Translations under genes and position numbers: made by a program
Shown: positions 9,747 through 38,202 of the stretch, piece after piece
Position numbering within the stretch: the stretch's first letter is position 1
Layout: the number at the start of each line of letters is the position of its first letter
The notes under the pieces: generated by a model
Database searches by the model: none
Seen by the model: the letters and a program-made list of their open reading frames with translations, nothing else
What the model was told of the DNA's origin: nothing
NCBI GenBank assembly: GCA_964291285.2
Contig: OZ219788.1
Location: 315,136-379,135 of the forward strand
Direction of reading: 5' to 3'
DNA from: Alphaproteobacteria bacterium
GTDB taxonomy: Bacteria > Pseudomonadota > Alphaproteobacteria > Bin95
Length of the DNA: 64,000 nucleotides

Positions 9747-9845
9747 CCCAACTTCAACAGTGACGATTAAAAGTATTCGATAGAACAGGGAGTTACACCG
9801 GCATCGCCGGGTGTACCCACTACATTTCGTTGATTTTGGGGACGG

Positions 9846-11154: not shown

Positions 11155-11273
11155 CGCACCTGTCGGTTCTAACCTGTTGATACAGCGTCTGTTTTTCCTC
11201 GTGCAACAGCGGGTCAGGGGTGCAACTGCAACCGCAATGTGCCCCGCCTGCAAATGGATGCAGGAGGAAATCC

Positions 11274-12395: not shown

Positions 12396-12398
12396 TCC

Positions 12399-13544
12399 AT
12401 GCCGAGGCGGAAAAGGCTCACCGACGCCGGCATCGCAAGGCTTCGGGCCGGGGCGCGCGAATATACGGTCTGGGATACCGGGGTCGCCGGGCTCGGGGTC
12501 AGGGTTCGCCCCTCCGGCAGCCGGACGTTCATCTACCATCGCAAGACGGCCGACGGGTTGCGGAAGATGTCCTTCGGTCCGGCAGCGCTGCGCAAGGTCG
12601 CGGATGTGCGCCGCGCCTGCATGGAGGCCGCGACCGGGGCCGCCGACGCGGACGCAGCCTGTCGCGAAAGGGCGCCGCTGTTCGGGAATTTCGTGGCCGG
12701 TCAGTGGGAGGCGGATTGTTTCGAGCGCTGCAAGCCGTCCACGCAGAGGAACTTTGCCGGCATTCTGAGACGGCAGCTGCTTCCGGCCTTCGGCTCCCGG
12801 CGCCTCGACCGCATCACCCGCAGCATGGTGCTCCGCTGGTTCGAGGCTTGCAGCCGGACCGCGCCGGGGGCGGCCAACGCCGCCCTCGCCCTGCTGCGGC
12901 AGATCCTCAACCACGCCATCGCCTGCGGGTACATCGAAACCAACCCGGTGCGCGGCATCCGCCGCAATCCCGGCCGGAAGATGACGCGCTTCCTGTCCCG
13001 AGAGGAAATCACACGGCTTCACCGTGTCCTCGATCGGTATGCGCAAGGGACGGTCTCGCAGGCTCAGCAGGCCGACATCATCCGCCTGCTGCTGCTCACC
13101 GGCTGCCGCAAGGGTGAGATCGTGTATTTGCGCCGGGAGGAAGTGAAGGACGCCCGGCTCGAACTTGCAGACGCCAAGACGGGACCGAGAACGGTCCTGC
13201 TGAACGCGCCGGCACGGGAGATCGTCGCGCGCCGGATGCGGCAGGGAAACGGCCCCTGGGTCTTCCCCTCCGTCAGGGACCCGTCCCGGCCCCGATGCCG
13301 GGAGCTTCCCCTCTGGTATCGGGTTCGGCGCGAGGCCCGCATAGAGGACGTGCGCCTGCACGACCTTCGCCATACCGTCGCCAGCCAGGCGGCGATGAAC
13401 GGCGTGCCGCTGCCGGTCGTCGCTCGCCTGCTCGGACACGGCAATGTGCGCATGACGATGCGCTATGCCCATGTCGGAGACCGCGAGATCGAGGCGGCGG
13501 CGGAACGGGTCGGGCGGGCGATTGCAAACTTGATGGCGAAGTGA
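12399..13544 (+). CDS. second tyrosine recombinase / integrase, a paralog of the preceding gene (381 aa)
   Basis: It starts 3 nt after the int1 stop. ...EYTVWDTGVAGLGVRVRPSGSRTFIY...LLLLTGCRKGEIV...HDLRHTVAS...LLGHGNVRMTMRYAH. Confidence 0.9.
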   Translation: MPRRKRLTDAGIARLRAGAREYTVWDTGVAGLGVRVRPSGSRTFIYHRKTADGLRKMSFGPAALRKVADVRRACMEAATGAADADAACRERAPLFGNFVAGQWEADCFERCKPSTQRNFAGILRRQLLPAFGSRRLDRITRSMVLRWFEACSRTAPGAANAALALLRQILNHAIACGYIETNPVRGIRRNPGRKMTRFLSREEITRLHRVLDRYAQGTVSQAQQADIIRLLLLTGCRKGEIVYLRREEVKDARLELADAKTGPRTVLLNAPAREIVARRMRQGNGPWVFPSVRDPSRPRCRELPLWYRVRREARIEDVRLHDLRHTVASQAAMNGVPLPVVARLLGHGNVRMTMRYAHVGDREIEAAAERVGRAIANLMAK

Positions 13545-13624: not shown

Positions 13625-16762
<3,138 letters not shown>

Positions 16763-17314
16763 CGGGAAGGGACAGTCAACTGGTTCATGACGCGACGGAT
16801 CATCAGGTCTTTGTTGGCCGGTGCGCTCTCGGCAATCAACGGGGTGAGCCGGTCAGCACTCGGGGATCAAGCCGGCGCGCGACGCACTCCTGCGCCAGAT
16901 AGGGCAGGAAGAGGAGCGCAGATGCGTTTGTAGTCGTCGGTGACGGACGGCCCTTACCAATGAAGTAGAGCAGATGCACCACCTCCTCCTCACAGCTGCG
17001 GCAGAGCGGTTCGCCGGACATGGTCCGCTTGATGTTGCGACGATAGCGTCCAGGGCATCGCTGCGCTGGTTGCCGAAGAGCGGCGATGCCTCGCCTCTCG
17101 CTACGAGAACGCGTCTCGGGTCCTTGATGGCATGGGTTGCGCGGTCGGCGTCGAGTGCACCGACAGCCGGTTTCACGCCGGCCGGCCTTTCCATGCGGTT
17201 TTCGTCGTATTCCAGGAAAAGACGCCACATCTCGGTATTGGCCGAGCTGATGTCGGAAACAGCCGAGCCGGTATCGCCGGCCGGTTCAACCATATTCCGG
17301 ATTATCTTCGTCAT
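16763..17314 (-). pseudogene. decayed or frameshifted ORF(s) of unknown function between orf380 and hsdR
   Basis: Good GC3 coding signal runs from ATG 17314 (MTKIIRNMVEPAGDTG...EMWRLFLEYDENRMERPAG...DALDAIV). It then switches frame near 17020 (RNIKRTMSGEPLCRSCEEEVVHLLYFIGKGRP...). No single intact frame spans the 523-bp gap. Confidence 0.3.
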
Positions 17315-18428
17315 CGCGCAGGACGCTCTCCAGTTGGGGGTTCAGCAGCTTCCATCGCTGACGTACCCGCTCGAGATCACCCTTGAGGATGACCGGCACC
17401 CGGTCCTTATGGGCCTGAACCACGCGCTCGTAATCGGCCTGTTCCAGAACCGCCGCGACCGACTGCCATTGCCCGTCGATTTCGGTGCGGAACCTGATCG
17501 TCCCGTCCACATCTTCCTCTTTGCGTTCCAGGACACGAACGAAGCCATACAGAAGCACATCGGGCCTTGGCGCACGCTCTCGCAGGGAGCGCGCGGCCTC
17601 GCGCAGCAATACGGCATCCTTCGATCCGAACTGGGAAACCGACGGCGGCGTCTTCACCGGCCGCGTCCGTGCCCACGAGACGCTGATATCCAGCTTCGGG
17701 AACGGTTCGACGATTCTGGCAAGCGCCTCACAGAGATTGGCGCTCACCCCGCTGGATACTGCCTCTCCGAAGGCACCGCCATCGTCGGAACCCGCCCGCT
17801 CTGCCGCCCGACGTACCGCGGCCAGCGCCTCGACAAGCCGTTTCGTCATCCGGCGAAAGATCGGCGCGTTAAGGTCATCCGAAGCCTCATCCTCGAACAA
17901 CATTAGCATGGGCGGCGGCATGGCCGGTGTCAGCAATGTCACCACAAAACTGCCCTGGTCCGTCTGCCCAAGCCGCATCTGCCGCAAAAGGTCCGCCGCG
18001 TCCCTGTTTGCACGAGCACGGTACACCGGCCGCGGGTCATGAAGCGAGCACGCCGCCGCCAGCACCAGGTCGCTGGCGCCATCGATCAGGGTCACGCCGT
18101 CGTTCAGTCCCAGGCTGCCGTCGTCGCTCTCCGCCGCCCGGATGCGAATCGCATCGCGGTCCGCTGTCGTGAGCGCACGGTAAACGGTCAACGTGTCCTG
18201 GTCGGCTACCTGCGCGAAGGTCTCGATCAACGCCGCCACGGCACTTGCATAGTCCCCGAGGCGCGTCGTCAGCGGCACGACGATTTCCGGCAACGTGTCG
18301 CCGACATAGATGTCCGAATGCTCGCGATACGAGTCGCAGCGGCTCCAACCCGCGATGCGGGCGTAGGCGGACAGCGCCGCCGGTGAAATCGCCAGCAGCG
18401 CGTCGCGGTCTTGAATGCTGACTTGCAT
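17286..18428 (-). CDS. hypothetical protein (380 aa), no domain recognised; partner of the DUF4365 protein
   Basis: The ATG shares one base with the upstream stop (TGATG at 18428). Protein-like composition with high GC3. I could find no catalytic motif. Confidence 0.7.
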   Translation of the reverse strand: MQVSIQDRDALLAISPAALSAYARIAGWSRCDSYREHSDIYVGDTLPEIVVPLTTRLGDYASAVAALIETFAQVADQDTLTVYRALTTADRDAIRIRAAESDDGSLGLNDGVTLIDGASDLVLAAACSLHDPRPVYRARANRDAADLLRQMRLGQTDQGSFVVTLLTPAMPPPMLMLFEDEASDDLNAPIFRRMTKRLVEALAAVRRAAERAGSDDGGAFGEAVSSGVSANLCEALARIVEPFPKLDISVSWARTRPVKTPPSVSQFGSKDAVLLREAARSLRERAPRPDVLLYGFVRVLERKEEDVDGTIRFRTEIDGQWQSVAAVLEQADYERVVQAHKDRVPVILKGDLERVRQRWKLLNPQLESVLRDDEDNPEYG

Positions 18429-18928
18429 CAGAGTTCTCCCGTCCTGGATTGCTCCATCAGCCTTTGCAGGGCCTCAACATCGAGTATGTTCCGCTCGGGG
18501 ATATGAACGGTAACGGTCTTCTGACCGGCGACTTCATCATGGCCCCGTTGCAGGCTCAGCCAGTAGGCGCGACGCCGCAGGATGAGAGCCTCCTCGGTCA
18601 CGGACAACCAGCGCGCTTCGTCTTCGGGAAGCTCCAGCACCACGAGCAGCCGAGGCGTCTGCGTCCCGGCACGTAGATCGTCGTAGTTCTTCAAGGACAG
18701 TCGAAACGGCAGGACGCCGTTTCTTGGCCCGCTGAGATCGGCAGTGGCCTTGAGTTGCAAGTCGAGGGCCGGGCGATATGTACCTCCCGCCTGAACCCGC
18801 AGGTCGACGCTGTCGCGGTCCGGCGCCGGCACAGAAGTCAGAAACCCTGCACGCGCCGCCAGCGCCTTGACATAGACCAGGGACAGCCCCTCCTTCCTGT
18901 CAGGAGAGGTGAGCAGGCCGCCAGTCAT
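18428..18928 (-). CDS. DUF4365-like protein (166 aa, predicted restriction-endonuclease-like fold)
   Basis: EGLSLVYVKALAARAGF...DRDSVDLRVQ...ALDLQLKAT matches my recollection of the DUF4365 pattern (D...(D/E/Q)xK core). There is a 4-nt overlap with the hsdS stop. Confidence 0.65.
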   Translation of the reverse strand: MTGGLLTSPDRKEGLSLVYVKALAARAGFLTSVPAPDRDSVDLRVQAGGTYRPALDLQLKATADLSGPRNGVLPFRLSLKNYDDLRAGTQTPRLLVVLELPEDEARWLSVTEEALILRRRAYWLSLQRGHDEVAGQKTVTVHIPERNILDVEALQRLMEQSRTGEL

Positions 18929-20544
18929 GCAATCTCTCCGACAATCTGTTCAGCATCCCGAAGTCGGACTTCGCCGGACATCAGTTTGGGAAGCAGCCCG
19001 TGTAGAATGCCGACGAGAGAATGACTTTGCCGGGAAGCCGCACTTGCTCGAGCGATAGGCGGACGAACCAGATTTCCGAACGCGACGGCGACTTGCTCTG
19101 TCGGGCACGCAAGTGGGAATTTTTGCAAGGCTTGGGCCTGCACCCGCTGGCGACCGCTTGTACCGGTCATGTTCTGAATGGCAAATTCGCGGAAACGAAA
19201 ACTTCGGGCGAGACAATATGCGAATTCATACGGAAGCGGAGACTTGGGGCGCAAGACAATGTACTCTGTGGATCCCCAACCTACCTCGCCTTCCTGCAAG
19301 AAATCGACATAGGCCGTCTTTCCGTTCTCTAGGCATGGCGTGATACGAGCCATAAGTGTATCGCCGTTCATGAACTTTGTCCCCGAGCCAAAGGGACGAG
19401 CAGAGATGGTATCAGGTATATGTCCCTTGGCTGGCATGTTCGCCATATCGAGGTACGGAGCGGTTTGCCCCTTGGGCAAACGCCGCAGGGGATTGACTGA
19501 GATCAGATCGTCGAGCGGGCTCACTTCCCACCCCTCCGGTATCTCGCCGATTTCGGAATTGGCGAAGCGGTCGGGAAACAGTTTCCATATTTCGGGAGGC
19601 AGATAGGGCGCACGCCCTTCCATCTTCGCCCGGACCGGCCCGAAATCGACGAACCAGTCCTTGAAGATCGCCCGCGCCATCGCCTCCAGCGTCCCGTTCA
19701 TGCGCCGGTTCAACGCGATCTTGTCGTCCAGCGCGCCGAGGATGCCCGCAATCGCCCGCTGCTCGGGAAGGGGTGGTAAATCGATGTTCAGATTCTTGAT
19801 ATCCGAGGGCCTTATTGACGGATAAGCCGAAGTACTGTGTTCGGCAATGGTATGAAGCTGGTTGATAATTCGTTCCTGAACAAGAAACCAATAGATGAAA
19901 CCAGTGTCAGCAATGTCTTCACGCGCACGAAACACCGCAAAGCCAGTAGATGCGAGAAAATTCTCTGGAACATCCCGTAGCAACCCGAAGTGCCTCTGAT
20001 TGGGCCGGACGGTTGAGAATACGATGTCGCCCGGTTCAATTTTGCGACGCGCACGGTCAGGCAGCTTGTCTTTGTTCAGCTTCAGGCATTGAATCCTCTC
20101 TATTCGGTTATCTGTGATGCTGCCTGTATCAAGGTAATTGACAAATGGCCAATCTTCCTTCGGGGAATATGTTGCTTCATTCATTACGGTGCATTCGCCA
20201 AGTCGTATCCTGTGCCAATGATTGGCAGGAACTAGCGGTTTGGCCAGTACCACATGGTCTCGCTCAATTTGCTTCCGGAAGGAGCCCGGCACGTCATCCC
20301 AGACGAACAGGTCCACCCGGAATGGGAGACTGCTTTCCTCCAACGCTTCCCGGAGGTCGGAAACGGCGCGCTTCTGTTCGGGCGTCGCGAACACCACCAT
20401 ATCGATGTCGGATTGGGGGCGAGAGGTCCAACTGACCCGGGAACCGTAAGCCCAAGCCTTGGTGTCCGGGAGATGGCGTTCGAGCAACGCCAGAATATCT
20501 TTGCGTTGCCCGGCGGTGATGTCGATGGAGAAGTTTATTCCCAT
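18925..20544 (-). CDS. hsdS: fusion protein (539 aa): N-terminal minimal nucleotidyltransferase (MNT) domain joined to a type I restriction specificity subunit HsdS
   Basis: aa 1-~105 carry the MNT signature AYGSRVSWTSRPQSDIDMVV. The rest is a two-TRD HsdS with conserved LPPLPEQRAIAGILGALDDKIALNRRMNGTLEAMARAIFKDWF and a C-terminal LLPKLMSGEVRL. It is one continuous frame with no internal stop. Confidence 0.8.
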   Translation of the reverse strand: MGINFSIDITAGQRKDILALLERHLPDTKAWAYGSRVSWTSRPQSDIDMVVFATPEQKRAVSDLREALEESSLPFRVDLFVWDDVPGSFRKQIERDHVVLAKPLVPANHWHRIRLGECTVMNEATYSPKEDWPFVNYLDTGSITDNRIERIQCLKLNKDKLPDRARRKIEPGDIVFSTVRPNQRHFGLLRDVPENFLASTGFAVFRAREDIADTGFIYWFLVQERIINQLHTIAEHSTSAYPSIRPSDIKNLNIDLPPLPEQRAIAGILGALDDKIALNRRMNGTLEAMARAIFKDWFVDFGPVRAKMEGRAPYLPPEIWKLFPDRFANSEIGEIPEGWEVSPLDDLISVNPLRRLPKGQTAPYLDMANMPAKGHIPDTISARPFGSGTKFMNGDTLMARITPCLENGKTAYVDFLQEGEVGWGSTEYIVLRPKSPLPYEFAYCLARSFRFREFAIQNMTGTSGRQRVQAQALQKFPLACPTEQVAVAFGNLVRPPIARASAASRQSHSLVGILHGLLPKLMSGEVRLRDAEQIVGEIA

Positions 20545-20951
20545 ATCTGTTCGGTCATCGTTTGGTAGAGGCCTATGGCGTCGTCGATAAACGTGGGCAT
20601 CAATGCCAGGCAGGCTTTCGCTTTCTCGCCGTCGTAATCGTGCGACGTATTGATACGCGCTTCCGCATATTCAAGCCAATCTTCCAACGGAGAAGCGAAC
20701 AGGCTGTTTTCATGTGCAAGCCTGAAGAGAGGCTTGGGACTGTTGGGTACTTCGGCAATGCCGAGTTTCTCGTTAAGGTATCTTTTCAGTACCTTCCACA
20801 AGTAGTCGTAGCAGGTCTCGAAGCGCTGAATGACCGACTCGGCGACCCCTTCCCGGGTCATTTCGGATAGTCCTTCGTCGGGCGACTGATAGTTGTCATG
20901 TTGCTCCTCCAGGCGTTTCAAGGACAACTCGAATTTTCCATAGTCGATCAT
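20535..20951 (-). CDS. HEPN-domain protein of the HI0074 / nucleotidyltransferase-substrate-binding type (138 aa)
   Basis: MIDYGKFELSLKRLEE...VIQRFETCYDYLWKVLKRYL... with an Rx4H motif (RINTSH). It overlaps the MNT::hsdS start by 10 nt. An alternative upstream start is at 21023. Confidence 0.75.
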   Translation of the reverse strand: MIDYGKFELSLKRLEEQHDNYQSPDEGLSEMTREGVAESVIQRFETCYDYLWKVLKRYLNEKLGIAEVPNSPKPLFRLAHENSLFASPLEDWLEYAEARINTSHDYDGEKAKACLALMPTFIDDAIGLYQTMTEQIWE

Positions 20952-20973
20952 GTACAGCCCTTCCGCACCGCTT

Positions 20974-21221
20974 TCACCAGGAAGAGCGGCGCAAGACCAG
21001 CGCCTCAACGGTTCCGGCCGCATCCGGCTCCCCGTCAGGCAACCCTTCGGGGTCGCCGTGCTTTCCCTGCCAGGACTCCGTTCCCGTATCGAGGTCGATC
21101 TTCTTCACAATCATGCGCTCGGGAGACAGATCATCGTAACCCCCTTCGTAGCCGTCCACCACGACATGCAGCACGGGCGGATAGCCGCCAGGCAGCTCGA
21201 TCAATTCCGCAACCGTCATGC

Positions 21222-21225
<4 letters not shown>
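20974..21225 (-). CDS. small hypothetical protein (83 aa)
   Basis: The start overlaps the hsdM stop (ATGA at 21222-21225), which suggests translational coupling. Acidic, protein-like sequence with no recognisable domain. Confidence 0.4.
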
Positions 21226-22826
<1,601 letters not shown>

Positions 22827-23044: not shown

Positions 23045-26000
23045 TCATTGTGTGGCGATTCCGTACAATTTTTGAAACCGGAGGTCGCCAGAAATTCCGC
23101 AATTCCCGGCGCACAGAGCGTCAAGCAATTTCTTGAGACCGGGCTTGTTATAGTCCGGCAGAACATCGATTACCTTATTCAGCACCTTGAGCAATGGCTC
23201 CGGATGCTGTTTCGCGCAGCCATTCCTGTTGAGAACGAAGAAGCTATGCCCGACGCCGCCGCTGCCTTCCACGGGCCGCAAATATGTCAGCCACCATTCC
23301 GCCGCCTGAGGAAATGCATCGCCGCACTCCGCAAGCATCTTCAGTATCGCTTCCGAGATCTTCGCAGTATTGCGGCCCTGCTCTCGCGGCCAGTAGCTGC
23401 AAAGCCAGCGGTGCAATTTCTCGTCCCAGATCCGCTGCCGTTCGTCAGGTGTCCCGGTGAGGCGCCGCCTCAGGCTCCCAAGCACAGTCACCAGCCCTTG
23501 TTCGGGCATGGGGGCGACAACGTCGCGAATCTCTTTCTCAGTCAGATCTCCCGGCGCATCAAGGCAGACCGCCATGAACAGGTCTCTCAGTCGGCGCATT
23601 CTCCGGTCTTCAAGCCTGTCGTCGTGCAGGATTTCGAGAAACGGCGCCCTGATGGCTTTCAGGAGGTCCGGACCCAGACCTGGCGACCAGCTGTATGCAG
23701 ACCATAGGTCGACAGCTTCCTGTGACTTCAGGCAGGCGAGGCGCGCGATCAGGTGCTGCCGGGTCCACTCAGCGTCGACCGCAAACAGCGGGCGCAATCT
23801 GGTCGCCAGAAGCACGCGGCCTGGATGCCCGAGCGGGTCTTCGGCCATGGCGTCGAAATACGGCCGGACCGGTGGAGGGAATCCCGCTCCGGCTGGCAGT
23901 TCGTATTTCGACAGCCGGGTCAATGCCGCTTCCGCCAGCTTTCCGGCCGGATGGTTCAAGGCGTTCGTCAGGGTTTCATTCTGGTCGGCCATCTCCGATT
24001 CGCCCTCGCCCTTTCCGACCCAGGATTTCATCCAAAGGACACCGAATTCAGCTTCCCGATCGGTTTCCCATGCGTCCGCAAGCTGTTTCACGAAGCCCGC
24101 GACGGCGGACGCTACCTCGCCGAACAGCTCGCCGGGAGCCTCGGCAAGGATTCTTGCCGCACAGGCGTGCAGTTCCGCCGGCCGCTTTGGTTCCGGCAGC
24201 TCCCAGAGGAAATCCCGCCAGTACCCTGCAGGCCATTTGCCCTGTTTTCCGAGCTGTCGCAGCGCGGAAAAAACCTCTGCCGGTTTCCGGGCAGCCAGCC
24301 CTCGCAGTCCGTCCTGAACGATTTCCCCGGTATCGAGCGCCACCACGATGTCTTCGACCGATCCCTTGAGGAGATGCTTGGGCGCATAATCTTCGATGCC
24401 GATTCGTTCATACTTTACCTCGCCAAAAAATTCATCGATCTCTCCCTCGATTTCCTCCATTTTCTGGGTTATTGTTTCAGCCATCGCTCTTGATTTCTTG
24501 TCCAGCTTTATCCCGGACATGCCCAGCATGTGCAGGAACAATGCCTGTTCTTTGCGCAACCCTTCGTCACTGCCGAAGGATTCCCGGATTTTATTCGATT
24601 TCGGTCCAGCGTGAATTGCGTCAATGATGTCGCTGCGGAGATCTCGGGGTAACCGCTTGCCCGCCAATCTCAGAAAACGCATCGTTTCGCGCCGCATATC
24701 GAAGTCCCAGAGACCGAGGTTTCGACCTCCCAGAAGCAATTTCTGGGCAAGCCGAATATCGGCTCTCGGGTTTTCGGTCAGCGCGTGCAGCGCCAGCCTC
24801 CCGAACAGCGGCTCTTCGGAGTCCGCCCAGCGAAGGAGAAGATTGTACGCGCGTCGGCTCTCGTCGGGAACCAGCGCAAGATAACTGTCCCGCGCCAGAT
24901 CGATGAGGCGGGTCCAGTTGTCGAAATCGTTGTTTTGCTCGTGAGGCGCGATCGACGGCCGATACAGGTACGACCGCTGGTAGACATTGCCATCGGCCTT
25001 ACCCAGGGAAAGGGCGTGTTCGAGATGATCGGTCAGCGTCTCGGCGTGTCTCGAAAGCACTTCCCGGTCATCGAGAATAGCCTTGAATAGCGCCCAAACC
25101 CTGTCGCATGCCGACATCAATTCGAGATGTCCGCATGTATCGATGGGCTGCGGCGCTTGCGGGGTATTCTCGTAATTCAGCCGTACTTGCCGGACCATGG
25201 AAAGACCCGGTCGGACGACGAGACGCGGCCGGATACTCTCCATGACCTTGTCCTCGATGAGCCTGCGTTCGTCGGGGGACATCGCGGCCCGATGACGGTC
25301 GGAAAGCCAGAGCCCGTTCCAGGGATCATCGGGCCTGCTGCCCAGAAGAACGGTCCAGAGCAGTCGCAGCCTGTCGGGAATGTCCGGAAGCGCGGAAGCC
25401 CGCTCAGTCAGACGGCTCTCGACCTGCTGGCGAAGAAGAGGGTGGAGATGAGCGCCGTTCCGAAGCGCCCAGGCCAGCAGTTGCGGCACATGCAGATGGT
25501 TGGCCAGCCAAACCGAGAGATGGTGCCTTGTCCTATCCAGATTGTAGGGATTCACCGATTCGAGACCGGTATCTACGAGATGCCGGTCCGTCCCGTTAGC
25601 GGCAGAGCGCAGCAGACCCTTTTCCGCGAACATGTCGAGCCACTTCTCGAACTTTGCATGGTCCTCCTCGTTCGACATGGGAGGGGCTTCGGCAAGCGCC
25701 TGTGCGGCCGATGCGTCCTGTAGCGCCCAGACGACCCGTTCCACAACCGGCCCGGCCGGCATCTTGTTAATCTCGTCGATGGCGATCCGGGAACGGGCTC
25801 GAAGGGGATCGCTTCGGATCCGCGCCCATTCAATCAGTGTGTCTGCGAGAAGGCGGTGTCCGTCCCGCTCGTCATAGAGGATCGGTTCGACATTCTTCGC
25901 GACCCAGGCGTCACGCGCCCTGGATATCCCGGCTTCGGAACCATCCATGGCGGCGAATGCCCAAGCCATTCCGAAGCCCGCGCCCTTTGACCGCTCGGCG

Positions 26001-26701
26001 GCAAGGGCGTCGACCATGTACCCCATGACAGGATCGTCGAGGCTGTAGCCGACGAAGACGACCGAGAATTCGCGAAACAGTTCGGTGACGAACCTCGCCG
26101 CCCAGCGCTCGGTCAGATATGCGCGCCCGAAATCTGCCGCGGTCAGCACCAGGTTCGAGCCATCTTCCTTCGGTGCGATGCGGCCGTGCAGATGCACCAG
26201 GCTCGACCAGGCATGAGGCTTGGGTATCGGAAGCCGGGGCGCGGCATCGACCGTCAGGGATTCTTCCGCCGCTTCGGCAAAGCGGTTGTCGAAATTGGTG
26301 GTAACAAGTCGGACGCCGCTGTCGAAATTGGTGGTAACAGGTCGGACGCCGCGTTCAGTCCGCGACAGCTTGAGCAATGCCTTGTGGAGTTTCAGGTCAC
26401 CGCTTCGCGGTCGAGAAAGCCGGTCGATGACCGCACCCCGCAAGTGGTTCGCGCCCAGGCGGCGTTCCAGAAGCCCGAGCGCCCTGTCCCAGGCCCCGCT
26501 ACATAGCGCTTGCCGTTCGGCGGGATCGGGTTCGATGTGGTTGGCATCATATACATGTTTCACGAGGGCTTTGAAGCTCGGCAGGTCAGACCCTTCTGCC
26601 ATCGAGACCCCGGCGCCGCAGAAGAAAACGACATTGCCGTCGTCCAGCCCGTTCAGGAGGGGCGCCGGAATGTCCGGGCCGTCTTCAATCAGTTCAGGCA
26701 T
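23045..26701 (-). CDS. giant SIR2-like (SIR2_2-type) domain protein, 1218 aa, with a ~950-aa helical C-terminal region of unknown function
   Basis: N-terminal VVFFCGAGVSMAEG...VTTNFD...LVHLHGR...VFVGYSLDDP is the prokaryotic defence-type sirtuin pattern. It is co-directional with, and 218 bp upstream of, hsdM. Confidence 0.8.
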   Translation of the reverse strand: MPELIEDGPDIPAPLLNGLDDGNVVFFCGAGVSMAEGSDLPSFKALVKHVYDANHIEPDPAERQALCSGAWDRALGLLERRLGANHLRGAVIDRLSRPRSGDLKLHKALLKLSRTERGVRPVTTNFDSGVRLVTTNFDNRFAEAAEESLTVDAAPRLPIPKPHAWSSLVHLHGRIAPKEDGSNLVLTAADFGRAYLTERWAARFVTELFREFSVVFVGYSLDDPVMGYMVDALAAERSKGAGFGMAWAFAAMDGSEAGISRARDAWVAKNVEPILYDERDGHRLLADTLIEWARIRSDPLRARSRIAIDEINKMPAGPVVERVVWALQDASAAQALAEAPPMSNEEDHAKFEKWLDMFAEKGLLRSAANGTDRHLVDTGLESVNPYNLDRTRHHLSVWLANHLHVPQLLAWALRNGAHLHPLLRQQVESRLTERASALPDIPDRLRLLWTVLLGSRPDDPWNGLWLSDRHRAAMSPDERRLIEDKVMESIRPRLVVRPGLSMVRQVRLNYENTPQAPQPIDTCGHLELMSACDRVWALFKAILDDREVLSRHAETLTDHLEHALSLGKADGNVYQRSYLYRPSIAPHEQNNDFDNWTRLIDLARDSYLALVPDESRRAYNLLLRWADSEEPLFGRLALHALTENPRADIRLAQKLLLGGRNLGLWDFDMRRETMRFLRLAGKRLPRDLRSDIIDAIHAGPKSNKIRESFGSDEGLRKEQALFLHMLGMSGIKLDKKSRAMAETITQKMEEIEGEIDEFFGEVKYERIGIEDYAPKHLLKGSVEDIVVALDTGEIVQDGLRGLAARKPAEVFSALRQLGKQGKWPAGYWRDFLWELPEPKRPAELHACAARILAEAPGELFGEVASAVAGFVKQLADAWETDREAEFGVLWMKSWVGKGEGESEMADQNETLTNALNHPAGKLAEAALTRLSKYELPAGAGFPPPVRPYFDAMAEDPLGHPGRVLLATRLRPLFAVDAEWTRQHLIARLACLKSQEAVDLWSAYSWSPGLGPDLLKAIRAPFLEILHDDRLEDRRMRRLRDLFMAVCLDAPGDLTEKEIRDVVAPMPEQGLVTVLGSLRRRLTGTPDERQRIWDEKLHRWLCSYWPREQGRNTAKISEAILKMLAECGDAFPQAAEWWLTYLRPVEGSGGVGHSFFVLNRNGCAKQHPEPLLKVLNKVIDVLPDYNKPGLKKLLDALCAGNCGISGDLRFQKLYGIATQ
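26288..26353. repeat. 33-bp in-frame tandem duplication (2 copies, 2 mismatches) inside the SIR2 core
   Basis: GTCGAAATTGGTGGTAACAAGTCGGACGCCGCT is followed by GTCGAAATTGGTGGTAACAGGTCGGACGCCGCG. On the coding strand these give GVRPVTTNFDS and GVRLVTTNFDN. Confidence 0.9.
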
Positions 26702-26794
26702 GGCGAATTGTACCGTCGTTCATTTGGCGCCGGCCTCATGCGGGTCATCGGGTAATGTTGCCGCCTCCCAGTAGCGGTTTCTGTAGAATTTCGC

Positions 26795-26826
26795 TGCACT
26801 GCTAAACTCGTGCACTGCTAAACTCG
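26795..26826. repeat. 16-bp perfect tandem repeat TGCACTGCTAAACTCG x2 in the divergent SIR2/relaxase intergenic region
   Basis: Read directly. It is followed by the related TGAACCCGTGCACCCG. It could be an operator, an iteron or an oriT accessory site. Confidence 0.8.
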
Positions 26827-27125
26827 TGAACCCGTGCACCCGAAGCGTCTTTAACCTTCATAGCCCGATTCGCAATCCGCTTGCTGATCCTGTCGGGAGC
26901 GCCGCACAGCCCGGGCCCGGCATAGGCGCCAGCAGCGAACAGGCGGCGCAGCCAGAGAGGATGAATGGCGCATGGATTTCAGCACGGGCGTCGCGACGTC
27001 GTTTCCCTAAATACCCGTGCCGAGCCTCGGCCTTGAGCCTTTCCGGCAGCTGGCACGGCGGTCACGGCTTCGGCGGCCTCTGGACGGTTGACACGCCGCC
27101 GTCCGCGATGGGGTAAGCTCCGCCG

Positions 27126-30100
27126 ATGGTGGCGACGGTCTTCAACCTGACCTCGGCTTCCTCGACGGTGCACTATTTCCGGCGCGAGGGGCACGGGCTC
27201 GGGCCGAACCTGCCGGCGAACGACGACGAGGCGGGCGACTACTACGCGCGCAAGGATGACGAGCACCGCAAGGCGAGCCGGTGGCGGGGCAGCGGGGCGG
27301 CGGCGCTGGGGCTGACGGGCCATGTCGAGCCGGTGGAGTTCCGGCGTGTGCTGCAGGGATACGTTCCCGGCACGGACATCCGGCTGGGGCGGCTGCGCGA
27401 CGGCGAACACGAGCACCGCCCGGGTGTGGACATCACGTTTTCGGCGCCGAAGTCGGTGTCGCTCGAGGCGCTGCTCGGCGGTGCGGGTTCGGCCAGGGCG
27501 ATGCGGGCGCACGATGCGGCGGTGCGGGCGACGCTGGACTACATCGAGACACGGCTCTTGCGAACCCGGCGCTGGAGCCGCGAGGAGCGGCGCTCGGTGC
27601 AGGTGAATGCGCCCATGCTGGTGGCGGCGACCTTCCGGCATATCACGAGCCGCAACAACGACCCGCAGCTTCACACCCATTGCGTGGTCGCGAACATGAC
27701 GCGCGACGGCGGGCAGTGGCGGAGTGCGGAGACCGGTCTGCTGCGCCGGTCGGAGAAGCTGGTCGGGGCCTTCTACCGCAACGAGCTGGCGCACCGTCTG
27801 CGCCGTGAGGGTTTCGCGCTGCGTCCGTCGATGATCGGGCGGGTTCCGGGGTTCGAGATCTCGGGCTGGCCGCGTGCGGTGCTGGAGGCGTTCTCGAGCC
27901 GGCGGCAACAGATACTGGCCTACATCCGGGAGAAGGGCTGGCGCTACGATGCGCACACCGCGCAGGCGGCGACGCTGGCGACGCGGGCGCGCAAGAACGA
28001 GCCGCGCCGGGCGGAGCTTGAGGCGCTGTGGCGGGCGTTTGCCGAGGAAAATGGCCTCGCCAGGCGGACGCTGCGGAAGATCGGGGTGCGGCATGCGGCG
28101 CCGCCGACGGCGCTGGAGATCGCCTGGCGGGCTCTTGAGCAGCTGGAGGAGCGGGCGAGCGTCTTCCCGGCGCGGGACGCGCTGGCGCTGGCGCTGGCGC
28201 TGGCGCATTCGCCCGGCCTCTACCGGCTTGAGGAGATCGAGGGGGCCTTTGCGGAGCTTCGACGGGACAAGCATTTGCTGCCGGCGATCCGGCGCGGGGC
28301 GGGCGAGGCCTGGACGACGGCGCGGGCGGTCAACGCCGAACGCGAGGTGCGCGAGCGCACGATCGCCAATATCGGTGCTGTCAGGGCGCTCTCCGAAGCT
28401 CCCGTCCCCGGAGAGGCGCTGGAGGGCCTGACCGGGGGCCAGCGCGAGGCGGTGCGGCTGATCCTGGAGAGCCGGGACCGGGCGGTCGGGGTGCAGGGCC
28501 ATGCGGGCACCGGCAAGACGGTGATGCTGCGCCGGGCCGTGTCGTGCATGGGAGAAAGGCGGGTGCTGGGACTGGCGCCGTCGGCCTCGGCGGCGCGGAC
28601 GCTGTCGCGCGAAACGGGCCTCGCCTGCCGGACGCTGCAATGGTTCCTGACGCGCTGCCAGGAGGTGTCCGACGGGGTGGCGGACGCAAGGACGCTCGCC
28701 GCGCTGAGAGAGCGCCATGGCGGCGCGGTGGTGGTGGTGGTGGACGAGATGTCGCTGGCGGGCACGGCGCAGGCGCGCGCGCTGCTGCGGATTGCCGAGC
28801 GCCTCGACATTGCCCGGCTTGTGCTTGTGGGCGACAGCCGGCAGCTGCGGGGCGTGCAGGCGGGCCAGCCCTTCCGGCAGATGCAGCAGGCGGGCTTGGG
28901 CGTCGCGGAGATGGACGAGGTTCGCCGGCAGCAGGACCCGGACCTGCTGGCCGCCGTCCAGGACATGATCGAGGGCGAGCCGGGCGCGGCGCTGGAGCGT
29001 CTCGGAGGCAACCTGCGGGAACTGCCGGCGGAGGAGATCGCGGGCATGGCGGCCGCGCTCTGGCTGCGGCTTTCGCCCGGGGCGCGGGCGGGTACGGCGT
29101 TGCTGGTTCCGACGCGCGCGCTCAGGGCCGAGGTCGAGGAGGCGGTGCGCGAAGGCCTCGAAGCCGAGGGCGCCCTGCACGGGTCCTCCATCGGGATCGA
29201 GACGCTCGTGCCCCTCAACCTCACGCGCGCGGAGACGGGGTCGTGCGGCTGATACCGAGCTTCTCCCACGGCCCCTCAACCTCACGCGCGCGGAGACGGG
29301 CGACGTGCGCAACTGGCGCGAGGGCGACATCGCGCTCTTCAACCGCGAGCGGAAGAACTACCGCATCCGCAAGGACGACGCCTGCACGGTGATGGAGGTG
29401 GAGGAGGACCGGGTGATCCTCGCCCATCCCGATGGCCGGCCGCGCCACCTGAAGCCCGGCGGCGACCTGCGCTACCGGCTGGACCTGTTCGAGGCGAAGA
29501 CGCTGCGGATCAGGGAGGGCGAGCAACTGCGCTGGACGCGCAACGACAGGGAGCGCGGCCTCGTCAACGGCGACCGTGTGGAGGTGGCCGCCATGGGAAC
29601 CGGAGCGCTCCGCATGCGCCTCTCCGACGGGCGGGAGATGCGATTCGCGCGCGACGACCCGCAGCTTCGTCATCTTGCATACGCCTATGCGTCCACCGTG
29701 CATGCGGCGCAGGGGCAGACGCACGACCGTGTGGTCGCGGTGCTGGACACAGGCGCGGGGCCGCTGGTGAACCAGCAGACGCTCTACGTGCAGCTCAGCC
29801 GCGCGCGGGAAGAGGCGCTGGTGCTGACCGACAACCGCGAGCAGCTTGTGGAGACGCTGGAGGCGAACACGGGCGAGCGGCTGACGGCGCTGGAAGCCAT
29901 CGGCGAGACGGAGACGATGAAGGCGCCGGCGAAGCGGACGGTCTCCGGGGAGGCGGCGTCTGCGTTCCTTGACGGCCTGCGCGCGGAGCGGGAGCGCCGC
30001 GCCGAAGCGGAGGCGGCCTTGCGCCGGCTGGCGGAGGCCGAAGCAGCGCTTGCCGCAGCCCGCGCCCATGCGCAGGAAGCCGGATACACCTTCGCCGCCC

Positions 30101-31434
30101 TGCCGGCGGTCGATCCGGACGACGGACAGACCCTTCAGGACCGTCTCGCGGCGGCCAAAATTGTGCAGGAAGCGGCGCATGATGTCTCGGCTGCCGCCCA
30201 TGCGGTGCTGGAGGCGGCGAAGGCGGCGGACCGCGTCCCGCCGCTCGACGATGCCGCGATGGAGGCGGCGAAGACCGGCGAAACCGAGGCAGCGGCGCGC
30301 CTTGTGGCATACCGGTCGCTGGAGACGGCCTTGACGGCGGCGAACAGGGCGTCCGGACGGCTGGCGCCCGCAGGCGCGCTCCGCGACAAGGATATCGACG
30401 GGGCTTCGATGCAGCGCCATGGCGCCGCCGCCCGGGAGGCGGCCGCCGCCTTCGACGCCCTCGCGCAAAAGGCGCGGGCAGCGGGCGAGGCGGCGCTGGC
30501 CCGGCGCGCGCGGGAGAGGGCTTCGGACCTCGGGCTGGCGGCGCTGCACTGGAGCTACAGGCTGGCGGGCCACCGGTTCGCGGTGGCGCGGCTGGCCGAG
30601 CGGGACATGGCGCCGCCGCACACGGTCGGGGACGTGCGGCGCTGGCAGGACCTGCGCCAGCGCCAGGCGGACGCGCGGACCGGGGCGGCAGCCGCGGCCG
30701 AGGCGGTCGCGCCGGAGAGCGCGGACGCGGCGGCCCGGTGGCGTGAACAGGCGGCGGACTACCGCAAGCAGGCCGGCGCGATACGCGGCTCGCTGGCGGA
30801 ACTGGAGGGGCTGAAGACGCTGGTGCGGACCGCGGAAGCCGCGTCGGACGACGCGGCGGCATGGAGCGCGGCGGCGGGCGCGGCGGAGACGATCCGGAAA
30901 GGCTCCGGCCGGGGTCTGGAGGACGAGGCCGCGCGCGTGCGTGACGAGGAGGCGCGCCGCCGACAGGAAGGGCGCGAGGCGGCGCGGGCACGTTTCGAGA
31001 CCCTGAGCTCGGAATGGGACGCGTTCGAGAGGAAGGTCAGGGCCGGGGGGCGGGTCGGCTTTGCGGACAAGCGCAGCCGGCAATATGTCGACCGCGCGCG
31101 GCGGCTGGAGGCGGACCCCGATCTCGATGCGGAAGCGAAGGAGACGCTCGCGGCGTTCCTGCACGAGCACGATGTCGTGCGCCCGAAGGTCGTCCGGCGC
31201 TGCCGGGAGCTGTTCGCGCAGTGGAACGCGGTCCGCGCAACGGCAAGGGCCCGCGGCGTCGGCCGGTTCATCCCTCCGGAGAGCGCGGAGGTCGTTGCGG
31301 GGATGCGCAAGCTCGCCGCCGGGAGCCCGGAGCACCTGACGCGCAGACAGAAGGAGACATTCGAGACGATCACCGAGGAATACGCCCTCCATGTCGAGCG
31401 GCAGCGGACATGGGTGATGACCATGAGGCCGTGA
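27126..31434 (+). pseudogene. MobF-family conjugative relaxase / helicase (TrwC/TraA-like), disrupted by a 61-bp insertion
   Basis: Relaxase motifs (DYYARKDDEH; HITSRNNDPQLHTHCVVANM) and a RecD-like helicase Walker A (VQGHAGTGKTVM). The frame breaks at 29240-29271. Removing 61 nt gives 4248 nt = 1416 codons. Confidence 0.85.
29210..29300. repeat. 30-bp perfect direct repeat (29210-29239 and 29271-29300) flanking a 31-bp unrelated spacer inside the relaxase gene
   Basis: GCCCCTCAACCTCACGCGCGCGGAGACGGG occurs twice, 61 bp apart. Both copies encode PLNLTRAETG in the respective frames. Confidence 0.9.
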
Positions 31435-33650: not shown

Positions 33651-34813
33651 CCAGCGGGCATAGTTCAGAACCCATTGGCCCATTTTCGGGTTCCGATGGA
33701 GGCGATGCGTTCTGGTTGTGAGACGAGATTGTTCCAGGCCTGGCAGCAGTGATCGAGTATGTCGTCGTAGTTCTGGAAGACGCGGTTCGAGAGCCAATTT
33801 TCGCGCATGAACTGCCAGACATTCTCGACGGGATTGAGCTCGGGGGACCGGGGCGGGAGCGGCATCAGGGTTATGTTGTCGGGGACTTTGAGGGCCGGGG
33901 ATGTGTGCCATCCGGCCCGGTCGAGCATGACGAGGGCATGGGCTCCGGGTTCAACGGTGAGGGCGACCTCGGCGAGGTGGGCGTTGAGTGCCTCCGTGTT
34001 GGCGTGGGGCATGACGAGGCCGGCGGCCTTGCCCTTCTGCGGGCATATGGCGCCGAAGATGTAGGCCGAGATGGTTCTCTGGTCCTTGGGCGCTGACGGT
34101 CGGGTGCCGCGTTTAGCCCATCGCCGGGTGATCTTGTTCTTCTGCCCGACGCGCGCCTCGTCCTGCCACCAGACTTCGACCTCGACGCCGTCGCCGAGTG
34201 CAGCGCGGATCTCCTTCAGGCGGTCGGGGAAGTTTTTTTGAACCCTGCCAGCGCGGCTTCGTCCTGGGCATAGTGGCGCGGGCGCGCAGAGAGCTTGGCG
34301 TAGCCCATCCGGCGCAACTCCCGCCCGACCGTCGTCTCCGCCAACGAGATGCCGAACTGCTCGCTGAGCCATGCCGCCAGGTCGCAGCGCCGCCACCGCA
34401 CCACGCCGTGGATCGCCGGGTCCGGACCGCTCTCCACAACCGCCGCCAGCGCCGCGCGCTGCTCCCCGTTCAACTTGCGCGGCGGACCTGAGGCCTTGCG
34501 ATCCTTCAATCCCTCCGGGCCTTCCGCGTTGAAGCGAAGAACCCAGTCCCGGATGATCTGCAAGCCCACCCCCGCAAAACGCGCCGCATCCGAACGACGG
34601 TAACCGTCGTAAATCACCGCAAGCGCAAGAAGGCGACGGTTCTGCGAACCATCCCGGCTCCGCTGCGCCAAGCCGCGCAACTGCGCCGCATCAAAATCCT
34701 CCCTCAAGGGGATTGCTGCCCTCATAACGACCCTCCAATCGCAGAATCGCTATTGAGTCAGAACTCGATAACCTTGGGAATCCCCTCAATGAGTCTCAAC
34801 CCTCAACCGCTGG
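33651..34813 (-). mobile_element. IS630-family insertion sequence (1163 bp) flanked by a TA target duplication
   Basis: The inverted ends CCAGCGG (33651-33657) and CCGCTGG (34807-34813) are each flanked by TA (33649-50, 34814-15). Confidence 0.8.
33665..34725 (-). CDS. IS630-family transposase (orfA HTH + orfB DDE) joined by a programmed -1 frameshift
   Basis: orfA ends ...ALAGFKK and orfB continues NFPDRLKEI...WWQDEARVGQK...MLDRAGWH...LPPRSPELNPVENVW. The A7 slippery run on the coding strand is at 34233-34239. Confidence 0.85.
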
Positions 34814-35183: not shown

Positions 35184-35782
35184 GTGCGAGGCTCTGCCAC
35201 CGATTCCTCCAGGATAGGTGCCTTGGCACTTTCGTATATAATCCCCAGGGAAAAGGCCATTGCCGCCATCGCCGAAGCCAAAGCCGACCGCGAGACCGGG
35301 CCGCTGTTCGCCGACTTCGCGGCCGACTTCATGCGCCGCCAGGGGCGGCGCTGGAAACCCTCCACGAGGAAGGCCAACGCCCATCTGATCGAGCGCCGCC
35401 TCGCGCCCTTCTTCGGCGCGATGCCCGTCGCGAAGATCGACCGCGCCGATGTGCGGCGCTGGTTCGATTCCCTCAGCGGAACCCCCGGCAGCGCCAACCG
35501 GACCCTGCCGGTGCTCTCGGTGATGATGCGCCAGGCGGAGCTATGGGACCTTCGCCCGCAGGGCTCCAACCCCTGCCGCAACATGCGGCGCTACAGGACG
35601 GCGCCGCGCGAGCGGTTCCTGTCCCTGGACGAGTTGAAGCGCCTCGGCTTCGTCCTCGACCATGCGGAGGACCGGCAGGCCGCCGCCGCCATCCGCCTGC
35701 TGCTGTTCACCGGCGCCCGGTCGTCCGAGATCGCCGGCCTGCAATGGGACTGGATACGGGACACCCGCGCGGTGTTGCCGGA
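35184..35782 (+). pseudogene. tyrosine integrase fragment (third paralog), missing both the N-terminal arm domain and the C-terminal catalytic half
   Basis: ...FADFAADFMRRQGRRWKPST...IDRADVRRWFDSLSGTPGSANRTLPVLSVMMRQAELWDLRPQGSNPC...LLLFTGARSSEIAGLQWDWI... aligns with int1 residues ~95-265. The C-terminal cut is at the IS21 end (35783). Confidence 0.8.
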
Positions 35783-35972
35783 TGTCAATCGGCGTTCAAA
35801 GTTGACCCCGGATCGGCGCGGAAGATTGACCCCTCTGTAGGTTGTCCCGGTAGTCAACAGGAGGGCCCCGCGCGGCTCCGCGTAGCGCCCTGCGATACGT
35901 GGAGCGGAGCCGCGCGGGAGGTGCCTGTTGACCCACCGGGGCAACCGGGCCGCCGGCCTGGGCGTCGCCGGG

Positions 35973-36701
35973 TCACGATCGATGTTTGAAGCGCCAGCTC
36001 TCGTTGCCGGTTTCGACAATGTCGCAATGATGGGTCAGGCGGTCGAGGAGCGCGGTGGTCATCTTGGGATCGCCGAACACGGAGGGCCATTCGCCGAAGG
36101 CGAGGTTTGTGGTGATGATGATCGAGGTGCGCTCGTAGAGCCGGCTCATCAGGTGGAAGAGCAGCTGTCCTCCGGCCTGGGCGAAGGGGAGGTATCCGAG
36201 TTCGTCGAGGACGACGAAGTCGCGCCGGGCGAGCTGCTGGGCGGTACGACCCTGGCGCCCGGCGCGATGCTCGGCCTCAAGCAGATTGACCAGGTCGACG
36301 GTGTTGTAGCAGCGCCCGCGGCAGCCCTGCCGGATGCAGGCGCGCACGATGGCGACGGCAAGATGCGTTTTGCCGCTGCCGGTTCCGCCGACCAGGACGA
36401 GATTGCGCTTTCCTTCCAGGAAGGCGCCGGTGACCAGTTCCTGGATCAGGGCCTCGTTGACCGGGGAGGCCGCGAAGTCGAAGTCGGCCAGTTCCTTGGC
36501 CATCGGCAGCCTGGCGCTTGCCATCTGGTATTTGATCGAGCGCGCCGTCTTGTCGGCGATCTCGGCCTGCAGCAGCGCGGCGATGATCTTCGGCGCCGGG
36601 TGGCGGCGCTTGATGGCGTCGGCGAGGATATCGTCCCAGGCGGCGCGCATGCCCGACAGCTTGAGGGCGGTCATCATCGCCAACACGTCATGACGCTCCA
36701 T
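35973..36701 (-). CDS. istB: IS21-family helper ATPase IstB
   Basis: Walker [14 protein letters not shown] and ...[11 protein letters not shown].... Confidence 0.9.
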
Positions 36702-38202
36702 GGCCGGCCTCCCTCAGACGGTCGTAGCGGTGGCAGTCGGCCACTGGCTGATGGCGAAGCTGCAAGCCCTCGGGCGTCGGGATGGGCGGAACCGGCGCCG
36801 GCTGGCGATGCCGGGCGAGGATGTTGAGCACGACGTCGGCGCTGCAGGCGCCATTGGCGAGCGCCTCGGCGCAGGCGGCTTCGACCGCCTCAAGTCCGTC
36901 CTCCAGAACCGCTGTAAGGATCCGGACGATCTGGCGGTCGCCATCGTCATGGCCGGACAGCCGGGCTCGCAGCCGACCGAGGGCATCGGGCAACGGCCAG
37001 TCCTTGAAGGGCGCGCCGTTGCGCAGCGCGCCGGGCTTGCGTGCCAGGATCGGCACGTAGTGCCACGGATCGCAGGTGACCGTGCCGCGCGCGAAGCTCC
37101 GGGGGTGCTCGGCAACCGTCTCGCCGTCCTGGCGGATGACGATCCGGTTGGCGTAGGCCCGCACGTCGACCGGCCGGCCGACGGCGCGGGCGGCAACGCT
37201 GTAGTGGTTGTTGTCGAAGCGCACCAGGCAGGTCTTCGAGACCGCCGACTCAACCGCGTGGAAGCCGTCGAACGGACCGCAATACCCCACCAGGAACGGC
37301 TGCTCCTCCTCGAACACCTCCCACACCGTCTTGCCCGCGATCGACGGATGCGCGCGGCGCTTGGCGTCCCGGATGCAGGCGTCCATGAGCCATGCGTTCA
37401 GCTCATCATGGGAGCGGCCCCGCAGGCGCGGCACGAACAGGCGGCTGCGGGCGTAGCCCACCTGGTTCTCTACCTGGCCCTTCTCCCATGCCGCCCCGGG
37501 GGTGCAGGCCACAGGCTCTACCAGGTGATGGGAGCACATCTCCAGGAAGCGACGGTTGTAGGCGCGCTCCTTGCCGATGAAGATCGCGCTCACCGCCGTC
37601 TTCATATTGTCGTAGATCCCCCGGCGGCACGACCCGCCGAAGAGCCGGAACGCCCGCTCGTGCGCCTCGAACACCATCTCCTGGCCTTCGCGCGGGAAGA
37701 CCTGCACCAGCATCATGCGGCTGTGGCAAAGGCGCATGTGCGCCGCCTTCACCCGGGTCGTCACGCCCGACAGAACCGCGTATTCGTGGCTCCAGTCGAA
37801 CTGGTAGGCCTCGCCGGGGGCAAAGCTCAGCGGCACGAACGCCTGCGAAGCCGACAAGGCACGGCGCTCGCGGCGCCAGACGCCGGCATAGCGACGAACG
37901 GCGTCATAACCGCCGGCATAGCCCAACGCCGCCAGCTCCTCATACATCCGCATCAGCGACAGGCGATCCCGGCGAGCCTTCTTCTCGTTCGCCTCCAGAT
38001 AGCCGTCCAGAACCTCGATCCACGGACCCGGCTTTGGACGCGACTGAACCTTCCGCCCGTAGCTGAACGACGTCTCTCCGCTCCGGACCGCCTTGCGGAC
38101 CGTGTTCCGGGATACCTTCAGCTCCCGGACAAGCTTCTTGATCGGGACCCCCTTGCCCAGATGCTCTCGACGGATACGCGCGATCGTCTCCACAACCAAC
38201 AT
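36688..38202 (-). CDS. istA: IS21-family transposase IstA (504 aa)
   Basis: HTH N-terminus ([19 protein letters not shown]) and a DDE core (YQFDWSHE...MLVQVFPRE...YDNMKTAV). Confidence 0.9.

Follow-up and report, generated by a model that had tools for sequence, protein, structure and literature searches.

A window of 64,000 nucleotides (the whole stretch of DNA analysed here; contig OZ219788.1 of the alphaproteobacterial assembly GCA_964291285.2, positions 315,136 to 379,135) carries on its minus strand, at 23045-26701, a gene that very probably encodes a member of the Dsr1 family (defence-associated sirtuin 1, reportedly described by Gao et al. in 2020). We read the gene, referred to below as dsr1, as a single-protein anti-phage system of a divergent clade, in which a SIR2 NADase, an enzyme consuming nicotinamide adenine dinucleotide (NAD+), would be fused to an alpha-solenoid sensor of about 920 amino acids (aa). 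The clade occurs mainly in Alphaproteobacteria, Gemmatimonadota and further environmental metagenome-assembled genomes (MAGs). Apart from a duplicated catalytic motif, the gene is ordinary for its family.

Gene call and assignment to the Dsr1 family

According to the list of open reading frames (ORFs) and the translation, the gene starts with ATG and comprises 1218 codons plus a stop. This gene call is sound, because the N-terminus (MPEL...) and the length are shared with more than 100 homologues of 1209-1234 aa. An earlier note, made from the letters of the window, had placed at these positions a 1218-aa SIR2 protein with the motifs GAGVS, TTNFD, HLHG and VGYSLDDP, and all of them are present (CGAGVS at aa 28-33, HLHG at aa 170-173 and VGYSLDDP at aa 217-224), with TTNFD occurring twice, at aa 123-127 and aa 134-138. 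In the Pfam scan, the profile that the note had suggested for a check, SIR2_2 (PF13289), matched aa 132-274 (E=4.5e-20), and no other Pfam family was found in the 1218-aa protein. Throughout the family alignment the motifs GAGxS, TTN[FY]D and LHG are invariant, and so are His172 of HLHG and Asn136, which belongs to the second TTNFD and occupies the column of the family's invariant Asn. E. coli Dsr1 reads YLHG where the present protein reads HLHG; therefore, the second His of this motif is the conserved one. Both residues are presumed to be catalytic, Asn136 by analogy with the literature on DSR2 and ThsA and His172 by analogy with published H171A mutants of DSR2 (PDB entries). Only 4 of the 288 columns that are conserved at 95% deviate in this protein, a value equal to the family median, which argues that the gene is not decaying. 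Gene decay was rejected on this basis, most of the indels also being common to the sub-clade.

The profiles built for Dsr1 match the protein from end to end: PADLOC model PDLC04167 (E=4e-169) aligns aa 4-1215 with positions 3-1238 of 1248, a second PADLOC Dsr1 model, PDLC02183, gives E=3e-158, and NCBIfam NF041818, 'anti-phage defense-associated sirtuin Dsr1', aligns aa 4-1213 with positions 3-1259 of 1263 (E=1e-204). Starting from a Citrobacter gene, we reached E. coli genes with the RefSeq annotation dsr1, which 76 of 5426 complete genomes carry. BLASTP against one of these proteins, WP_001159683.1, gave a co-linear alignment of aa 3-1212 with residues 2-1266 at 29% identity (E=3e-123). In the MAFFT alignment, identity is 46% for the SIR2 parts and 26.5%, over 882 columns, for the C-terminal 918 aa; when the C-terminus alone was compared with that of E. 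coli Dsr1, the two were co-linear over 887 columns with 24.6% identity (E=3.6e-56). The 'DSR-like' half of the earlier note's reading is thereby borne out. As the mark of a known system, that note had named clear full-length homology to DSR1 or DSR2, for example with more than 30% identity over the C-terminus; the homology to Dsr1 is unambiguous, although the identity of the C-terminus (24.6-26.5%) stays just under 30%.

More than 4600 homologues from many phyla were found. While a genome scan with exact peptide words returned no match, the scan with the family alignment yielded 565 loci across phyla, the best 80 of which form a graded full-length series from 63% down to 27% identity. The upper end of this series (63% identity) consists mainly of Alphaproteobacteria, Gemmatimonadota, Acidobacteriota and other MAGs, and its lower end, with 27-31% full-length identity, includes Pseudomonas, Pantoea, Citrobacter, Paraburkholderia and others. 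Clustering of the ORFs flanking dsr1 in these 80 loci revealed no neighbour family in more than 10 loci, and hence no conserved partner gene.

Taken with Dsr1 as it is known, the present protein has the same layout of a single gene of about 1220-1275 aa in which GAGxS, TTNFD and LHG mark an N-terminal SIR2 domain, the same co-linear helical sensor of about 900 aa, and the same location on a mobile island. It differs from E. coli Dsr1 in its limited identity, in its placement in a separate clade, and in an 11-aa duplication of its own. What was directly observed in this work comprises the domain architecture, the conserved presumed catalytic Asn and His, homology over the full length to E. coli proteins annotated as Dsr1, and the lack of any conserved partner gene.

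Structure prediction agrees with this architecture. The AlphaFold2 model of aa 1-340 (predicted local distance difference test, pLDDT, 85.7; predicted template modelling score, pTM, 0.84) has as its best Foldseek matches the SIR2 NADases DSR2, ThsA and KomC at a template modelling score (TM) of about 0.6. The model of aa 301-1218 (pLDDT 86.8; pTM 0.53) contains about 55 helices and a few short hairpins, arranged in two halves on either side of a low-confidence linker (aa 750-767). The helical C-terminus of about 950 aa that the earlier note had anticipated comes to about 920 aa, nearly all helical in a confident model.

Several points weigh against the assignment or against the function that it implies. 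First, NF041818 scores 682.7 bits, far under its equivalog cut-off of 1400 bits; thus, the same function as that of E. coli Dsr1 is not guaranteed, and public records accordingly say only 'SIR2 family protein' or 'hypothetical'. Second, the experimentally tested EcDsr1, WP_029488749.1, was not found in the five E. coli records searched, and the protein compared here, WP_001159683.1, is not necessarily the same allele. Third, no solved structure of Dsr1 or Avs7 appeared among the PDB matches in sequence, family-profile and Foldseek searches. Fourth, the sensor is only about 25% identical to that of E. coli Dsr1, so the trigger may differ. Finally, the 11-aa duplication, unique in the family and located beside the catalytic Asn, could reduce or abolish activity.

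Proposed mechanism

B. subtilis carrying DSR1 cloned as a single gene is protected against phi29 and shows a transient drop of NAD+, while the culture does not collapse (bioRxiv 10.1101/2021.12.14.472415). In a 2026 preprint (PMC12803255), the Dsr1 sensor was described as homologous to the tetratricopeptide repeat (TPR) sensor of the STAND protein Avs7 and as bilobed in shape. Out of 73 genes screened there, the major capsid protein was the sole trigger of EcDsr1 toxicity; activation by this protein was reported for both EcDsr1 and SeAvs7, and effector mutants lost defence (PMC12803255).

By homology, capsid-triggered depletion of NAD+ is the most likely mechanism for the protein described here. 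The alpha-solenoid sensor would bind a conserved structural protein of the phage, which is the major capsid protein in the case of the E. coli Dsr1 sensor, and this binding would release or assemble the SIR2 domain. The activated SIR2 domain would then hydrolyse NAD+, and the resulting fall in NAD+ would stop phage replication. The protein would work independently both of the neighbouring type I restriction-modification (R-M) operon and of the Dsr2 encoded on the same island. The NADase activity, trigger and defence phenotype proposed for it are inferred from published work on homologues of about 29% identity.

A tandem duplication of the catalytic motif

The two TTNFD motifs result from a recent, in-frame tandem duplication of 33 bp (Table 1). 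Two of the 33 bases distinguish its copies, each of these changes being non-synonymous (Leu to Pro and Asn to Ser); this argues against a trivial assembler stutter and does not by itself prove that the duplication is real. A scan of metagenomes for the 33-bp repeat unit gave no match and so offered no independent confirmation. None of the 39 aligned homologues and none of the 197 relatives compared has the 11-aa insertion. Across 198 sequences, the segment between the preceding helix and the catalytic strand measures 14-15 residues in 194, 19 and 21 residues in two others (L013 and L071) and 25 residues in the present protein, and it is missing in one truncated protein. With the duplication, the loop that immediately precedes the catalytic strand is 11 residues longer. 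In the AlphaFold2 model, copy 2 lies in the beta-strand (aa 129-134) and part of copy 1 (aa 118-126) is a low-confidence loop (pLDDT below 50), situated on the side of the sheet that is distant from the NAD+ site; this placement is biased by the alignment and says nothing about activity.

In the nearest relative, P0001 (90% identity), another in-frame duplication, of 7 aa (RFAEAVE followed by RFAEAAE, aa 131-144), lies four residues after TTNFD, and HLHGRI has a deletion of 1 aa (at HLHG-I). Among 121 proteins, only this relative and the protein in the window have tandem duplications in the SIR2 domain. A further protein, P0002, is 88% identical and lacks the C-terminus; the relative carrying P0001 may have two copies.

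These observations raise the doubtful but genuine possibility that the gene is an inactivated or attenuated Dsr1 allele, that is, a silenced and possibly revertible toxic effector instead of a working defence, in which an additional catalytic strand would interfere with the SIR2 fold or with its regulation. The position of the insertion directly before the catalytic TTNFD strand, its uniqueness among the 198 sequences, and the different duplication and the deletion in P0001 near the same motif speak for it. On the other side, the insertion lies N-terminal to the strand and away from the NAD+ site of the Rossmann fold, AlphaFold2 still predicts the SIR2 domain with confidence and assigns copy 2 to the strand (in a model biased by the alignment), loops at the same position are naturally 4-7 residues longer in L013 and L071, the rest of the protein is conserved at the family median, and the change of Leu to Pro would disfavour copy 1 as the strand. 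The more specific idea that selection has favoured the duplication as an attenuation, potentially reversible, of a toxic NADase, so that an abortive-infection gene would be turned off by a slippage-type switch, appears improbable. The independent duplication of P0001 hints at recurrent silencing of the active site in this Dsr1 lineage. The duplication is a post hoc observation, and the reading of the lineage as one with attenuated NADases has a low probability.

Relation to the type I R-M operon

In the earlier note, the gene stood at the head of a type I R-M operon and was considered a possible functionally coupled variant. Its position is as described, hsdM beginning 219 bp downstream of dsr1 on the same strand; the coupling did not hold up. 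A Dsr1 variant that is functionally coupled to the adjacent operon, for example in a co-transcribed and co-regulated composite system, is very unlikely, even though the common orientation and the short gap would suit it. When the Hsd proteins of the window were used in tblastn searches, none of the 21 closest relatives with available flanks had hsdM, hsdS or hsdR within 10 kb. Since these relatives lack R-M genes nearby, the type I R-M neighbourhood is a case of co-location on an island and not of coupling, and the R-M operon is outside the Dsr1 system. Base composition points the same way: G+C content and G+C at third codon positions are 0.60 and 0.69 in dsr1 versus 0.68 and 0.86 in hsdM and hsdR, a difference that suggests separate acquisition. 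It has also been reported that DSR1 functions as a single cloned gene (bioRxiv 10.1101/2021.12.14.472415).

Associations with R-M genes do occur elsewhere in the family and count in favour of coupling. In a distant clade of Dsr1 (about 28-30% identity), dsr1 lies between hsdS and hsdR in the same orientation at five loci (L038, L039, L043, L053 and L054), and an hsdM-like gene is found upstream of dsr1 in 10 of the 80 loci. Nevertheless, independent defence genes have been documented to nest quite generally within type I R-M loci (bioRxiv 10.1101/2024.01.29.577857), and the five hsdS-dsr1-hsdR loci agree with this pattern. A sub-clade of six loci (L024, L026, L046, L048, L051 and L062) has a common hsdM-like gene upstream of dsr1.

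Comparison with other SIR2 systems

The earlier note had further proposed a distinct family with an uncharacterised C-terminus. A new SIR2-plus-solenoid family with an unrelated sensor, separate from both Dsr1 and Dsr2, is extremely improbable. What favours it is that Pfam recognises only the SIR2 domain, that NF041818 stays under its equivalog cut-off, and that the C-terminus lacks a specific structural relative in the PDB: sequence and profile searches of the PDB with the protein and the family profile gave weak SIR2 matches only (KomC and DSR2), and Foldseek with the sensor model retrieved only generic HEAT/ARM solenoids (such as karyopherins and CAND1) at TM 0.17-0.29, which provided no functional clue. 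In contrast, the C-terminus alone is co-linear with that of E. coli Dsr1, the Dsr1 hidden Markov models match over the whole length, and the series of loci extends continuously from 63% to 27% full-length identity, reaching the Dsr1 proteins of Enterobacteria and Pseudomonas. The end-to-end profile matches and the BLASTP results for the whole protein and for its C-terminus led us to discard a new family. Moreover, being homologous to the Dsr1 sensor, which is described as an Avs7-type TPR sensor (PMC12803255), the C-terminus can no longer be called uncharacterised. The Dsr1 sensor is bilobed according to that preprint, and the model obtained here likewise has two confident helical halves with a low-confidence linker. 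Avs7 itself is a STAND NTPase with a nuclease effector, whereas the present protein has no STAND NTPase and its effector is a SIR2 domain. The link to Avs7 is drawn from the preprint and from the homology to E. coli Dsr1.

Dsr2 senses the phage tail tube protein. That the gene in the window encodes a Dsr2-like protein with this specificity is just as hard to credit as a new family: DSR2 is the closest SIR2 fold in the PDB and both proteins consist of SIR2 plus an alpha-solenoid, but no PADLOC Dsr2 model matches, only the SIR2 domain resembles the Dsr2 of the window, and DSR2 chains are absent from the Foldseek matches of the C-terminal model. Membership of Dsr2 was ruled out by the lack of a PADLOC match and by the dissimilarity of the C-terminus to the window's Dsr2. 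With B. subtilis DSR2 (PDB 8WKS, 8WY8 and others), the protein shares the SIR2 NADase fold, the single-protein layout and, as a likely output, depletion of NAD+; the C-termini are unrelated. ThsA of Thoeris and KomC have the same SIR2 NADase fold and motifs but are short, have no solenoid sensor and are activated by signalling nucleotides or partner proteins.

The island and its other genes

With the assignment to Dsr1 in place, we also surveyed the surroundings of the gene (Table 1). A mobile defence island of lower G+C content carries dsr1 (0.60 versus 0.68-0.73 in the flanks). The integrases and the TrwC relaxase make the earlier placement on an integrative and mobilizable element reasonable. 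A second defence-associated sirtuin gene, encoding Dsr2, lies 12 kb from dsr1 on the same island, and core genes begin at about 44.7 kb of the window. In a megablast search of 24 kb of the island against plasmids, only insertion sequence (IS) and hsdR fragments were matched.

MNT and HsdS share one open frame without a stop, which may be a real MNT-HsdS fusion or the consequence of a lost stop codon. The split of the TrwC-type relaxase-helicase into two ORFs may reflect a frameshift or a pseudogene. Three overlapping copies of a direct repeat of about 16 bp (TGCACTGCTAAACTCG) occupy 26793-26839, in the intergenic region between the divergent dsr1 and relaxase genes. This places them about 95-140 bp upstream of where dsr1 starts, and an operator or a site related to the origin of transfer (oriT) is conceivable.

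Table 1. Features of the dsr1-family gene and of the surrounding island (coordinates in the window)
Feature	Position	Strand	Evidence or remark
dsr1-family gene, 1218 codons + stop	23045..26701	-	ORF; PADLOC and NCBIfam Dsr1 matches; BLASTP
N-terminal SIR2 (NADase-type) domain, aa 1-300	25802..26701	-	Pfam SIR2_2; AlphaFold2; Foldseek; 46% identity to E. coli Dsr1
C-terminal alpha-solenoid sensor region, aa 301-1218	23048..25801	-	AlphaFold2; Foldseek; homology to E. coli Dsr1 C-terminus
Codon of Asn136 (Asn of second TTNFD), presumed catalytic	26294..26296	-	Invariant alignment column
Codon of His172 (HLHG), presumed catalytic	26186..26188	-	Invariant H172
33-bp in-frame tandem duplication	26285..26352	-	Tandem Repeats Finder (TRF; 26287-26352, period 33, 2.0 copies); sequence read directly
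Duplication copy 1, GVRPVTTNFDS	26350-26318	-	Sequence read
Duplication copy 2, GVRLVTTNFDN	26317-26285	-	Sequence read
IS66-type transposase	8214-9770
IS4-type transposase	9846-11159
Two tandem full-length tyrosine integrases	11220-13544	+	At the left of the island
Type I R-M operon	13625..22826	-	Pfam, PADLOC and NCBIfam matches
hsdR	13625-16762	-
PDC-M02B, 380 aa	17286-18428	-	Candidate defence pair, between hsdS and hsdR
PDC-M02A (DUF4365), 166 aa	18428-18928	-	Candidate defence pair, between hsdS and hsdR
MNT-HsdS ORF	18925-20544	-	MNT domain aa 14-100; HsdS aa 107-537
HEPN (NTase_sub_bind)	20535-21023	-	HEPN/MNT pair between hsdM and hsdS
hsdM	21222-22826	-
TrwC-type relaxase-helicase, two ORFs in different frames	27126-29252, 29305-31434	+	TrwC and AAA_30 in the first; UvrD_C_2 in the second
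IS630-type transposase	33665-34396
Third integrase, N-terminal half only	35184-35840	+	Cut by IS21
IS21 (istA/istB)	35973-38202	-
Full-length Dsr2, 1227 aa	38902-42585	-	PADLOC PDLC02184, E=2.9e-276

Significance

With this gene, a family of known effector chemistry and known trigger gains one more member, from a divergent clade that is mainly environmental. The gene also calls for a correction of annotation, since public records list such Dsr1-family proteins as 'SIR2 family protein' or 'hypothetical'. A single mobile island stacks Dsr1, Dsr2, a type I R-M system, PDC-M02 and a HEPN/MNT pair, and the combination of Dsr1 with Dsr2 on it is a minor curiosity. The duplicated catalytic motif provides a small test case for how far the SIR2 core tolerates change and for the natural silencing of such effectors.

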